This document shows, piece after piece, positions 47,201 to 53,200 of a DNA stretch of 64,000 nt. How positions within the stretch are numbered: the first letter of the stretch is position 1; the number at the start of each line of letters is the position of its first letter. This DNA is from Escherichia coli (lineage in GTDB: Bacteria > Pseudomonadota > Gammaproteobacteria > Enterobacterales > Enterobacteriaceae). The position numbers are program-made. The stretch lies in the NCBI RefSeq assembly GCF_030384885.1, contig NZ_CP128614.1; one strand, given 5' to 3'.

Positions 47201-50200
47201 TGTGGATCGGTCTTTAACGGCACGACACGGCTCTATCGTCGTTGCGCTGGTGGATGGAGAGTTCACGGTAAAGATCTTACACACGTATCCTGAGCTGCTT
47301 TTGATGCCTTCTAATCCAGCCTATAAGCCGATACGTGTAAATCCCGAATCCCTTGAGATATGGGGCGTCGTCACCTTTGCACTGAATCAGTTTAGCCATG
47401 TACATGCACGTTGATATTAACGGGGCCTATGCGGCATTTGAGTGTGCGATGGATCCCAAGCTGGCAAAAAAGCCGCTCATCATAGCCAGCAATAACGATT
47501 CGTCCGTCATTGCAATGAATAAACTGGCTAAAAGCGTTGGTATTAAGCGTGGGACCCCAATTTTTAAGTGCAGGGATTTGATTCAGCAACACCAGATCGA
47601 AGTCCGGAGCTCTAACTTTACTTTGTATGAAGACTACTCAAATCGCTTCCATGAAACGCTGGAAAGCTTCGCGCCTCAATCGAGTCGATATAGCATAGAT
47701 GAAAATTTCATGTTATTGAAAAACATGAACAAGATAATAGATTATGAAGATTACGGCCGGTTGATCAGAAGTACACTTCTTCATAATCTGTCCCTTACCT
47801 GTGGTGTGGGGTGTTCAAGCACCAAAACCCTGGCTAAATTATGCACCTATGCGAGCAAACGATGGGCAGCTACAGGCGGGGTTGTAGTTTTGACTGATCA
47901 GGCCAGGATCAGGAAGCTCCTGGGCCTTATCAGTACCAGAGAAATATGGGGTATTGGTCAAAAGATCAGTGAACGCCTGTCGGCTTTCGGGATCATCACT
48001 GCCGGTGATTTTTATAATAGCGACGTTCGCTTTTTACGTAAAAGCTTTGGCGTTGAAATCGAGCGTACCTGGCGGGAACTGCATGGCGAACCATGTTTCC
48101 GGCTGCATGAATCCCCTCCTGTCCGGCAACAGATTATCGTTTCCAGAAGTTTTGGTCAGCGCCTTAATGAGATAGGCAAGCTACATGAGGCAGTTTCATT
48201 TTTTACCGCCCGGGCGGCAGAGCAGCTGCGCAAGGATGGCTCGTGGACCCGTCAAATCACAGTCTTCATTCAGAGCAGCAATTATGCGCAAGGTGAAAAC
48301 CGCTACAGCAATTGTGGTATCGAGCCGCTTACCGCTACACAGGACACCCGCGATCTGGTTGATGCAGCCATGACCATCCTGAACCGCATTTACAAACCCG
48401 GGATAGCGTATGCGAAAGCTGGGGTAATGCTCTCCGCTATGACTGACGGCACAGAGCAACTCAGCCTGTTTGATGAGCGCCCGGCCAGGCCTGGCAGTCA
48501 GGCACTGATGAAAGTTATGGACCGGTTCAATAAAGAAAAGCGCGGAGCTCTGTTTTTGCTGGGGGAAGGCATTCAACAGGATTTTCGTATGAAACAGGCC
48601 ATGCTATCACCGAGATATACGACCCGCTGGGATGAATTACTCGTTGTAAAAGCGTAGCGGCCATGACCGGCATGGCCGTACTCATCAAAAGTGAAAGTAA
48701 CTTTAGGCCCCGCGAGCTTTTTCGATTGCGCCCTGCAAAGTTGCTGCGTCCATAGCCCCGGGGATAAATGTGGTAGTCGCCGCATTCGGCTTTTTCATAT
48801 TCATAATGATGAAGCCGGGTGTGCCGGTGATCCCAAGCGCTTCGCCCAGCTGCATGTTGCCGGAGATCACGTTTTCATATCGGTTTTTTTCCCTGTCAGA
48901 AAACGTGCTGTTAAACCCTGACTTATCCACCACAGTATTAAAGTCGCTGAGTTCGAATTTGCGTTGAGAGGTCATGAAGGTATGAGCCACAGCCATCAGG
49001 TTGTTGTGGTATTTACGATAGGCTTCAGCACCGAAATTCTGATAGACGTGCAGACCCGTAGCGGCCCCCATGGCAGATACAGGTTTTGAACCGGCAAAAA
49101 TCGGGAATTCTTTAAAGAAGAATTTTACATCTTTGCTCTGATTCATTACCGATTCAACAACAGGTGTAACCCGCATGCAGTAAATACACTGATAGTCGAA
49201 GAACTCGATTACCGCGACGTCGGCGTCATCCGGGCCGATGTTTGGCGTCTCCTTGGTATCCAGCAGAGCTGGCGCATATGGAATTATTCGTTCCACTGAG
49301 GCACTTACGTTCTGATTTTCCAGCGCCTTACCTGCTTCCACTAAATAATGGGGATTTTTTACCAGGTAAGTAGCGGCAATTTTGCCAATTTCTTCCTCAC
49401 TGAGCACCTTCGGTTTAAAATAAGTTGCCGCGATTAACGCCGAGGCAGCGGTAGCAATTACCGCAGAAATTAAAATCGTGGCCATCGGTTTTAAATAAAA
49501 TTCTTTAGACATAGCTACCTTTATGCTTTTCAGCCTGTTAGTTATTAACCTGCGATGGATTATACTGGCCCGGTAAATCGGAATTATTCGTGAAACAATG
49601 CTTTTTGGAGATTAAAGGATGATTAGGCAGGGCTTTATACTCACAACCGCAATGCTTTTGAGTGGTTGTGGATATCATTTCGCAAACCAGGTAGATGCGT
49701 ACGATCTAATGCCTCGTCCTGTTACAAATAAAAGGTTTCAGATAGTCCCTCCGGACGAAAGTATTCAGTCCAGAATGTTTTCAGGCCGTTTTGCTGATGG
49801 ATTAGCAAAAAAAGGAGTCATTATTTCCACTCACCAGCCAGATTATGTGCTCAGGTTCCGAATGAGCAGCTCACAGGAGAACATGCAGTATAGCGAGCAG
49901 CTTCTTACTGGGGTGACAGGCTACGTTGTAGATAAAAAGACAACGAGAACTGACAAGCATGGCGAATCGCATACTGACTATGACTACAGGCCGGTCGATG
50001 GGGTAATAGGCACTGAGACGATGTCGCAGATGCACTATATGCGACAGCTGGATGTCGAGGTATACCCGTCAGCGAAAGGAGCAAAGCAGGTTCTGAAAGT
50101 GAGTATGCAAAGCAATGCACCTGTGCCGTCAGACAGCATTGCTTATTCAGCAATGATCGACGCCTTTACTGATAAATTTGATGCGCCGCTGCGTTCCGGA

Positions 50201-53200
50201 AATTATGTTGCAGTGATCCCCTGGAACTGAAAGCAGACGGCGGGAAGAGAATGTTCAAAAGTGACTTTTGGACACGCACATAAACGTGGCTATCGCCCTC
50301 CCCCATTAAAATCATAAAGTCGGTAAAGATCGCCCATCGTGATGGAATTGGGCTTATTAATGATTAGATACTGTAACTGTTCTTTATGTTGAGTACTGGC
50401 GGCTGCATTCATAAGCACTTCCAGGTAGAACTTGTAGCCTATGCTTCGCTCTGAATACATATACTGGAACTGCATCAGTAAAATGCCTGACATAACATAC
50501 AACAGCAGCAGACTGAGTAACACAGTGCTATCAGGCTGTTCCAGTGCCATACTGACATACCCTGAACCCAGAATGCACAGAAGCCAACCCGTCATTAGAG
50601 CAGGCACCCTACGACTCAGACGTTCATAACAACGTTTTATTACGGGATCCCGGAGATACTTTTTGTCAGGTATCCCCGTTGCCCTGATGACGAAGTTACT
50701 GAGTATCGACATCTTTTTTCCTTCTGGACGCTCTCAGTCAATAAATCAGGCCAGGCGCTCATTGAAAGCTACCACGAGCTGCGAATCGGGATTTTTTACC
50801 AGTTCGGGCCGGATAACTTTTAGTTGCCTCGTTGGGGCGAGCTCATCTGTAGGCCTGATGGTGGTATTACCCGGCCCCTTGCGGGTACTGTCGGTGTTTA
50901 CCTTGAGCTTTTTATTTCCCAGGTAGCTTTCCATCTTTTTAGAGATGGTGTCACCTGTGGTCGCAACACCAGAGAGTTCCTTTAGTTGTTCACCTTGATC
51001 CATTTGTACCGATGACATCAGAAATACGATTCCTGGATCGTTTTCCGTTCCACAGGCTCCGTACTGACATTGTGCAGCGAAAACGGGCTGTACACCTACA
51101 GCAACCAGCATTAACGTACTCAGTAAAGTAGATTTCATACACACCTCTTACAGTCGGAAAAGTTACTTTTGCGCAGCGCCCATTTGGGTCACCAGGTTTT
51201 CCGGGCTCAGCCACCCCGTAAATAACTGCGGTTTGCCGCTTAGTGTCACCATGGTAGGAGTACCTTGCAGCGGGATTGTTGAGGCCACCTGGAAATGCGA
51301 TTTGATAATGTTTAAGCAAGCCTCATCAGGACGTCCTTCCGGGATAGTTGAAACCGGATTCATCGCTGCATCCAGAGCTTCGTTTGGCTTTGCTGAACAC
51401 CAGATTTTGGCCATGTTCCCGGCTACTACCGAGTTCAGTCCTGCACGTGGGAATGCAAGAAACTTAATCGAAATACCGGCATCAAGATAAGACTTCAGAT
51501 CATGATGCAGTTTTTGGCAGTATCCACAGGTTATATCGGTAAAGATAGCAAGCCGGTATTTTTCGTTTGGTGATTTGTAGTCGATGGATTTTGTTTTGGA
51601 TGCGAATTCCCGGACGCCCATTAAAATGGCCTGCTCAGTGGTGTTTACCACATCTTTACCTTTCACGTGGAATAAGCTTCCGGTAAAAATGTAATCTCCG
51701 TCTTTGCTCACGTAACTTACCCCCTCCCTGGAAATCACCGTAAAAATATCTTTTACTGGCGAGGGTTCGACGTGCTCGATTGAAAGCCCAATGGCTTTGA
51801 GCTTATCCCGGGCTGCATCTGGCAGTACCATTGTATTAACCGGCTCGGCATTCATCGTGAAGGCGGTACTTAATGAAAGAAGTAATACCGATGCCTTAAT
51901 AATTTTTTTCATTTATGCTCCTTGAATCGAGCACTAATATTATCACGCCCAAAAATTCCAGAATTTTGCTTAAACGCTTAAATCAACGGGTAAAGCCGAA
52001 AGAAAGTCGATAGATATATGGGAGAATAGATAAAACGTAGATTCAGTGGAGAAATCGTTGTGTTTACACCACCAGCAGATGATGTGAAACCTATTCCCGT
52101 TCCTGATGAGATTTACACTCAGTGCATTACGGATGCCGCCCGCTTCTTCGGAATTGATGCCGAACTGGTTTTTACGTTGTTTGACAATGAAGGCGGTAAG
52201 GTTGGTACTTTCAGCAGGAATACTAACGGCACTTATGATATTGGCCCGATGCAGATCAACTCATCCAATCTGCCTGAAATAAAAAAGCATTTCCCGACTG
52301 TAACGTGGCGGGTTCTGGCTTACGATGCTTGCGCTAGTTTCTGGGTTGGAACATGGTGGCTCTACAGAAAAATTGTTGATCGCAAGGGCAATGTGTTTGA
52401 AGGGATTGCAGATTACAACAGCAAAACCCCAAAGGTACGTGCAAAGTACATATTTAACTTCATGGTAAAGTACAATCGCCGGATCCAGCAGCGTAACGGG
52501 ATGGGTGAGCTTTATCAATGGACCCAACAACCTCCTCGATACAATGGCCATATAGCTAAAAATGTCCCGGAGCAAAACCCGACTCCTGTTGTTAAATAAA
52601 TTCAACCTGATATTACAGAAGATCATCGAGTAGCTTGGGTACCCCCCCGCAAAAAATTCGCATAGACTCAGGGGTAATAAATTGTCTTTTTCTGCAAGAA
52701 ATATATTTAAGATTCTCTCTTCTTTCTTGATGCAGAAAAGCCCTCTTCATGAAGAAGTATGTGTTCCTGAAGAAACAACAGCTGGTTTATGGGGCCCTCT
52801 CCCTGATTCGCATGTCGTGCTTTTCTTAGATTTCGATGGGGTTTGTCACAGGTGCAAAAATGAAACCTTTGAGCGAATGCCATTGGTGGAAAAATTACTG
52901 GATAAATGCCCTTCCATGGTGATTGTCATCTCCAGTTCGTGGCGTGAATGTGCCAGTATAACTTACCTGAAATCTCTTTTCCGGCTACCTTATAGAGACA
53001 AAGTCATAGGTGCTACCGATTCGGTATATTTAAAACCTAATCAGTCAGGTGTGCGGGCTGCTGAGTGTGAGGACTTTGTATTTTCACATCGAGTTAAAGC
53101 ATTTATCTGCCTTGATGACGACGAATCATTATTCCCGGTCGGTTATCCACATTTGCAAAAAACCAATTATTACACCGGCCTCACCGAATCTGATCTTGCA

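Follow-up and report, generated by a model that had tools for sequence, protein, structure and literature searches.

Which task holds together a small group of redox and cell-wall genes that sits, on a plasmid backbone, between umuDC and the genes for mating-pair formation (Mpf)? The question is raised by a 64,000-nucleotide stretch of Escherichia coli DNA (assembly GCF_030384885.1, contig NZ_CP128614.1), hereafter the window, for which an earlier note had described a DsbA-like protein, a lipoprotein, a DsbC-like protein and an SLT-domain protein at 48703-52599, and had proposed for them an accessory role in pilus biogenesis. The sequence identifies the window as an IncHI2 plasmid. Its segment 48000-53500 is shared at 100% identity by many plasmids of this type from Escherichia, Salmonella and Enterobacter, and a search with the segment matches 1011 PLSDB records, 1001 of them conjugative; one of the identical records, pSTM6-275, is typed as IncHI2A, MOBH and MPF_F. 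All four open reading frames (ORFs) are found where the note had placed them, and two further genes, encoding proteins of 140 and 130 amino acids (aa), had been missed. The resulting block of six genes is probably a module conserved on the backbone of IncHI-type (MOBH, MPF_F) plasmids, which would supply periplasmic helpers for the building of the conjugative type IV secretion system (T4SS) and the H-pilus. The domain identities, the synteny with trhFHG and the purifying selection behind this reading come from the present analysis, and the co-derepression of the R27 orthologues and the phenotypes of R27 dsbC and of the Rts1 relatives from the literature.

The block lies, as had been noted, between umuDC (ORFs at 46980-48657) and the mating-pair genes (TrhG, 54826-58779). 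It comprises, in order, a DsbA-family protein to be read as of the BcfH/ScsC class (269 aa, 48703-49512, minus strand), a lipoprotein (203 aa, 49619-50230, plus), a predicted two-helix membrane protein (140 aa, 50290-50712, minus), a secreted C-x4-C protein (130 aa, 50746-51138, minus), a DsbC-type isomerase (249 aa, 51163-51912, minus) and an SLT-domain transglycosylase (179 aa, 52060-52599, plus). The 130-aa and 140-aa genes lie on the dsbC strand, 24 and 33 nucleotides (nt), respectively, behind the gene that precedes each of them. When the block is compared with the Tra-region annotation of an IncHI1 plasmid, R27, the six genes map one-to-one, and in this same order, onto R0135, R0134, R0133, R0132, R0131 and R0130, which are located between mucB (R0136)/umuC and trhG (R0128).

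This arrangement extends to other plasmids. The IncHI1 plasmid pHCM1 and a metagenomic contig (L007) have one and the same order, in which TraF, TraH and TraG_N are followed by SLT (plus strand), DsbC, secreted and membrane proteins (minus), lipoprotein (plus) and DsbA-like protein (minus). In a second metagenomic contig (L008) the order of the six genes is the same, and the contig stops shortly past the SLT gene, with the tra side falling outside it. Reduced forms of the block are found in a Photorhabdus contig (L006), next to TraG and without the lipoprotein and the secreted protein, and in the Klebsiella MOBH/MPF_F plasmid pS245-2 (L003), where the SLT, DsbC and DsbA-like genes, together with small ORFs, stand beside TraG. 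The SLT gene adjoins the trhFHG operon in five lineages (the window, IncHI1, the Klebsiella plasmid, the Photorhabdus contig and L007). With homologues linked to trhFHG across lineages, the genes do not behave as the unrelated cargo that the note had considered as a possible refutation of its proposal.

The comparison of IncHI1 with IncHI2 indicates that the genes are kept by selection, since protein identity is retained while the synonymous substitution rate (dS) is saturated in every block gene, with nonsynonymous rates (dN) of 0.07-0.5. Identity is 90% for the SLT protein (dN/dS ~0.03), 83.5% for DsbC, 75% for the DsbA-like protein, 69% for the lipoprotein, 57% for the secreted protein (dN/dS ~0.17) and 45% for the membrane protein (dN/dS ~0.2), as compared with 77% for TrhG; saturation of dS makes the ratio not computable for DsbC, the DsbA-like protein, the lipoprotein and TrhG. 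On the evidence of these alignments, all genes of the block are under purifying selection and the six-gene core is to be regarded as a unit.

A link of this unit with conjugative transfer is also suggested by published work on its relatives. The transcriptome study of R27 names R0130 as 'bfpH, trbN-like', R0131 as 'dsbC' and R0135 as 'dsbA', and reports that, in an htdA mutant compared with the wild type at 25 °C, R0129-R0135 are up 19.5, 20.6, 13.0, 8.1, 10.3, 6.0 and 6.0-fold, whereas the adjacent mucB and mucA rise only 1.47 and 1.27-fold; R0129, R0130 and R0135 are, in addition, more strongly expressed at 25 °C than at 37 °C, by 3.1-3.8-fold, and the authors of the study suggest a possible role of R0130 and R0135 in promoting transfer (PMC7366339). 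According to a deletion study of Rts1, which also sums up earlier work, deletion of dsbC in R27 lowers transfer 10^4-fold, only in dsbC-null hosts, and Rts1 requires both orf206, a relative of R0135, and orf248, an SLT gene, for mating-pair formation (PMC10838148). The gonococcal F-like T4SS likewise requires its own DsbC and transglycosylases. Synteny, selection, expression in R27 and published phenotypes thus favour the accessory role in pilus and mating-pair biogenesis that the note had put forward.

Several points, however, weigh against this interpretation. As many as 139 of the 161 expressed R27 genes show derepression in the strain mutated for htdA at 25 °C, so the htdA result is only weakly specific, and R0131-R0134 are without clear thermoregulation (PMC7366339). 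According to PMC10838148, the SLT homologue of SXT is dispensable, and R0135 and R0130 (SLT) of R27 appear without any reported functional analysis. The experimental support concerns the R27 and Rts1 relatives and none of the IncHI2 genes themselves. Pfam and NCBIfam scans of the neighbouring ORFs reveal no redox partner of the DsbB, DsbD or ScsB type in the block. Finally, the SLT protein carries no signal peptide, which means that its periplasmic location is assumed.

Three rival explanations, namely a general envelope toolkit, stress cargo and a relic transglycosylase, are less well supported than the assembly of the T4SS and H-pilus. The first would make the block a general periplasmic toolkit for any plasmid envelope protein, adhesins and exclusion proteins among them, with no specific tie to the pilus or the T4SS. 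Such a role would suit the breadth of the htdA response, which takes in most R27 genes and not tra alone, as well as the lipoprotein, membrane and C-x4-C proteins, which show no recognisable T4SS homology. It nevertheless seems unlikely, given that the linkage to trhFHG persists while other neighbours (HAD, HNH, umuDC) vary between lineages, and that an association with secretion machines is characteristic of specialised transglycosylases of the TrbN/EtgA family. The second rival concerns the two thioredoxin-fold proteins, and is best weighed together with their own features.

The DsbA-like protein (48703-49512) contains a DSBA domain (PF01323, 6.5e-20), in which C109 and C112 form the CIYC active site and residues 230-232 the G-T-P loop. 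It also has an N-terminal hydrophobic segment, either signal peptide or membrane anchor, and a predicted helical stem that spans residues 39-83 approximately. Its best sequence match in the PDB, over residues 37-268, is BcfH from Salmonella (7jve, 1.5e-35), and the next ones are PmScsC (4xvw, 1.9e-14), CcScsC, StScsC and Wolbachia DsbA2. An AlphaFold2 model (mean predicted local distance difference test, pLDDT, of 77) shows the N-terminal hydrophobic helix, two helices at 39-52 and 54-83, and then a DsbA fold; the pLDDT of these stem helices is only 55-70, and the alignment with BcfH, which starts at residue 37, takes in the stem. A Foldseek search with the model also places BcfH first (2.3e-19, 264 columns) and PmScsC next (4.5e-13), with CcScsC among the matches as well, and the first 50 matches do not include E. 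coli DsbA. Across six lineages, the catalytic cysteines and the G-T-P columns are invariant, whereas the dipeptide within the CxxC motif varies (CIYC, CHFC, CHYC), CIYC being the form of the IncHI2 window and CHFC that of IncHI1.

BcfH is a trimeric enzyme with oxidase and isomerase activity whose gene belongs to a fimbrial operon, and the trimeric ScsC proteins are isomerases. The plasmid protein shares with BcfH and with ScsC (trimeric in Proteus and Caulobacter, monomeric in Salmonella) the DsbA-like catalytic domain, the predicted helical N-terminal extension and the Thr-Pro loop, and it would resemble BcfH in being accessory to a surface organelle. Identity to BcfH is, however, about 29-30% in the structure-based alignment, and the gene stands beside a T4SS and not in a fimbrial or copper locus. 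On sequence and model together, the protein should be read as a putative enzyme of the BcfH/ScsC class, the solved members of which are mostly trimeric isomerase/oxidases. E. coli DsbA has a CPHC site and a Val before the cis-Pro. A classical monomeric DsbA was ruled out by the CIYC site, the G-T-P loop, the predicted helices at 39-83 and the best matches, in both sequence and structure, to BcfH/ScsC. The DsbA-like label of the earlier note is borne out by the domain but not in the sense of a classical DsbA.

The DsbC-type protein (51163-51912) has a typical signal peptide, a DsbC_N domain at residues 32-89 (PF10411, 7.4e-14), a Thioredoxin_2 domain (3.7e-16), CGYC at 129-132, G-T-P inside LQGTPTMV and a second pair of cysteines, C172/C199. 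It matches, over its whole length, DsbC of Yersinia (1.2e-43) and of E. coli (8.4e-37) in the PDB (4npb and 1eej), with which it has in common the dimerisation domain and the signal peptide, and whose CGYC, Thr-Pro loop and second cysteine pair align with its own. The score against the NCBIfam DsbC model (NF008129) is 178.3 bits, under the equivalog cut-off of 215, which makes the protein a member of a plasmid-borne paralogous subfamily instead of a copied chromosomal DsbC. It is also far from DsbP, the isomerase of IncA/C plasmids (4ml1, 3.7e-12).

These affinities bear on the second rival, by which the two thioredoxin-fold proteins would be cargo against copper or oxidative envelope stress, carrying out ScsC/DsbC-like repair and complementing the load of metal resistances that IncHI2 plasmids bear. 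Among the solved relatives of the DsbA-like protein, BcfH is indeed followed by the suppressor-of-copper-sensitivity ScsC proteins, and DsbC of E. coli is needed under copper stress; moreover, pSTM6-275, with its identical backbone, confers copper and silver resistance (PMC5923156). Against this, the block occurs equally outside IncHI2 (in IncHI1 pHCM1, Photorhabdus and the metagenomic relatives, whose metal-resistance genes were not looked for) and always on the trhG side of the Mpf operon. For R27 dsbC and Rts1 orf206, the phenotypes given in PMC10838148 concern transfer. Furthermore, scs loci encode a ScsB/DsbD-like membrane partner nearby, whereas searches in Pfam and NCBIfam detect neither this partner nor a ScsA-like one beside the plasmid gene. 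The stress-cargo explanation is consequently an improbable one as well.

The most peculiar member of the block is the SLT protein (52060-52599, plus strand). It exceeds the cut-off of the Pfam domain (PF01464, 23.0 bits versus 21.3), and its NCBIfam matches, TrbN (7.3e-23; 81.7 bits, with a model cut-off of 246) and IagB (1.5e-13), both lie under their own curated cut-offs. Comparison with EtgA from the PDB (7.4e-8) places E44, D60, C22 and C91 on E42, D60, C20 and C89, which in EtgA are the catalytic residues (E42/D60) and a disulfide (C20-C89) (PMC10880428). These four residues are invariant in 16 homologues, other leaderless ones included. The protein is, from its sequence, a specialised lytic transglycosylase of the TrbN/VirB1/EtgA type, leaderless and with E44 and D60 as predicted catalytic residues. 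TrbN (of IncP), VirB1, IagB and EtgA have in common with it the SLT fold, the catalytic Glu, the equivalent of Asp60, the disulfide pair and a place beside a secretion machine; unlike EtgA, which has a signal peptide, the IncHI protein is devoid of one.

Neither a hydropathy scan nor reading of the sequence reveals a Sec, Tat or lipoprotein signal or a hydrophobic N-terminus. The gene starts with GTG, with a GGAG ribosome-binding site 8 nt before it and an in-frame TAG (52027-52029) 33 nt upstream, and no hidden signal peptide was found upstream in any of the three frames, in either IncHI2 or IncHI1. By contrast, the homologues from Klebsiella plasmids have an N-terminal hydrophobic stretch, which reads as a signal peptide, and their likely cleavage site, between A and FNPP, corresponds, on reading of the sequences, to the exact start of the IncHI proteins (M-FTPP). 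Other close relatives, and a group of distant relatives of 145-153 aa, are likewise leaderless, and in one of the distant ones a divergent UvrD-helicase gene lies 104 nt away and leaves no room for a signal.

The third rival, a relic transglycosylase that lost its signal peptide and is inactive on peptidoglycan, so that only the Dsb genes matter, would find support in this absence of any export signal or upstream coding potential and in the dispensable SXT homologue mentioned above, but it is scarcely credible for the most conserved protein of the block, whose catalytic residues and cysteine pair are invariant even in other leaderless homologues, whose R27 orthologue R0130 is derepressed 20-fold and whose Rts1 counterpart is, according to the Rts1 study cited above, needed for transfer.

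A tentative idea, which we put forward as a speculation, is that the IncHI transglycosylase may work in the periplasm without a leader, its Sec signal having been lost precisely up to what had been the cleavage site, while the catalytic residues and the disulfide pair were kept. It would then reach the peptidoglycan by a non-Sec route, possibly the T4SS itself, or else with the 140-aa membrane protein as a holin-like helper, and the co-encoded Dsb enzymes would fold it afterwards. Flagellar lytic enzymes, and some of those of the type III secretion systems of plant pathogens, are exported through their own machine. Four lineages whose SLT protein is leaderless have a member of the 140-aa family (GDLYRL.DFN type); the family is only weakly detectable in a fifth (L008) and undetectable in the one lineage whose SLT protein bears a signal, a sample far too small to carry weight. 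Were the idea true, non-Sec export of the transglycosylase would tie the opening of the wall to an inner-membrane platform that is already assembled.

In the favoured reading of the block as an assembly module, the TrbN/EtgA-type transglycosylase would open the peptidoglycan locally, at the assembly site of the apparatus. The DsbC-type isomerase (dimeric, with CGYC), presumably held reduced by the DsbD of the host, would repair mispaired disulfides in cysteine-rich Mpf proteins, and the BcfH/ScsC-type enzyme, with its CIYC site, Thr-Pro loop and predicted N-terminal helical stem, could contribute a second oxidase/isomerase activity that would make assembly less reliant on whatever Dsb enzymes each new host possesses. 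Going by cysteine content, likely clients for disulfide formation would be the transglycosylase itself (C22-C91), the secreted C-x4-C protein and TrhH. The lipoprotein with a PelC/TraT/LptE fold and the two-helix membrane protein might complete the set as accessory components of the envelope.

The interest of such a module lies in its carriers, as IncHI plasmids spread multidrug resistance, mcr and carbapenemase genes included, among Enterobacteriaceae. Helpers for folding and wall remodelling borne by the plasmid itself may explain how a large F-type apparatus is assembled in many hosts, and the proteins of the block are conceivable targets for anti-conjugation strategies. In any case, the transfer-accessory block is already known: its genes are identical in hundreds of plasmids, the R27 orthologues have been named, one of them has been studied and a transfer role has been proposed. 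With the block annotated and partly studied in R27, its finding here adds little. What deserves to be retained is the assignment to the BcfH/ScsC class, the core of six genes, the fold of the lipoprotein and, above all, a transglycosylase that is leaderless and yet highly constrained.

The remaining three proteins of the block have no match in Pfam, NCBIfam, PADLOC or PHROGs. The 203-aa protein (49619-50230), which begins with MIRQGFILTTAMLLSGC, is a probable outer-membrane lipoprotein. Its lipobox reads LLSG followed by C17, the core L-x-G-C being invariant in 13 homologues and the G-Y-H-F behind it invariant or nearly so. Its fold is PelC/TraT/LptE/DUF4136-like; PelC, TraT (surface exclusion in F), LptE and DUF4136 share this fold with it, and no sequence similarity to TraT or PelC is detectable with Pfam and NCBIfam. 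A role as the known surface-exclusion factor of IncHI plasmids was rejected, exclusion in IncHI/R27 being ascribed to EexA/EexB, which are encoded elsewhere on the plasmid, in Tra2; an additional part of the lipoprotein in exclusion is conceivable.

The 140-aa protein (50290-50712) is, by prediction, a small inner-membrane protein with two helices, one at about residues 60-78, which passes a hydropathy scan, and another at about 38-57, read by eye. It evolves fast and keeps a conserved C-terminal motif, GDLYRL.DFN. A word-indexed protein search returned near-identical IncHI2 sequences only; synteny together with a home-made hidden Markov model identified homologues in the Photorhabdus contig and in L007, a weak one in L008, and none detectable in the Klebsiella plasmid. 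The protein was also considered as a redox partner and rejected, as its cysteines are not conserved. The 130-aa protein (50746-51138) has a signal peptide that ends in QPVFA, with A as the first mature residue; the N-terminus of the mature protein bears a C-x4-C pair, and a segment at the C-terminus is conserved. These features are common to the members of its family, which accounts for 17 matches in 1.84 billion representative proteins. As for existing annotation, the RefSeq records of IncHI2 plasmids, produced by the Prokaryotic Genome Annotation Pipeline (PGAP), give shortened versions of the lipoprotein (115 aa) and of the membrane protein (86 aa), with the loss of the lipobox and of the first helix, and the IncHI1 records carry both at full length (203 and 140 aa).

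Regarding the non-coding parts of the block, the intergenic region from which the DsbA-like and lipoprotein genes diverge (49513-49618) is 88% identical between IncHI1 and IncHI2 despite the saturated synonymous sites of the flanking genes, which suggests conserved regulatory sites; this region probably holds promoters together with such sites. The second divergent region, between dsbC and the SLT gene (51913-52059), contains the GGAG site and the in-frame TAG mentioned above. No RNA family was detected by an Rfam scan of 45-55 kilobases (kb), and a repeat search at 48.5-54.9 kb gave short two-copy matches only, at chance level. A promoter scan was uninformative (2 promoter-like sites, as against 11.5 expected from shuffles), and the only convincing element of the promoter and terminator scan is a terminator with a 12-bp stem at 54762-54732, just after trhG.

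Behind the SLT gene lies a HAD_SAK_2 phosphatase-like gene (52682-53248, plus strand; PF18143, 7.1e-20), the orthologue of R0129. It occupies this place in IncHI1 and IncHI2 only, is not at that position in the Photorhabdus contig or L007 and is elsewhere in the Klebsiella plasmid, so that it is a lineage-specific companion outside the six-gene core. From there to trhG, the space is taken up by an inserted gene for an HNH_2 endonuclease protein of 429 aa, with the domain at its C-terminus (53356-54645, minus strand). This gene is specific to IncHI2, being absent from R27/IncHI1, the Photorhabdus contig and L007, and has its own promoter-like site. The trhF-trhH-trhG operon (54826-61239, minus strand) comes next, with matches to TraF (2.6e-51), TraH (4.8e-57) and TraG_N (5.4e-29), the TraG_N protein being TrhG, on the minus strand. 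TrhH has seven cysteines, one of them in the signal peptide. TrhF, of the TraF family (60193-61239, minus strand), has a thioredoxin fold with CQFC, and is the third CxxC thioredoxin-fold protein within 12.5 kb, at 8 kb from the block.

On the other side of the block, the plasmid backbone restarts just ahead of umuDC. Two backbone ORFs lie between the last IS26 and umuD, of 118 aa (45663-46019, minus strand) and 205 aa (46169-46786, minus strand), and neither has a match in Pfam, NCBIfam, PADLOC or PHROGs; the 118-aa product has an apparent signal peptide on reading of the sequence. Further upstream, at about 4800-45300 (~4.8-45.3 kb), extends a multidrug-resistance mosaic of high GC content with IS26 copies at its borders, which meets the backbone about 1.7 kb before umuD. 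Within the mosaic, IS26 transposase ORFs begin at five places (6359, 10562, 29634, 40128 and 44501), and mph(A) lies at 43474-44379.

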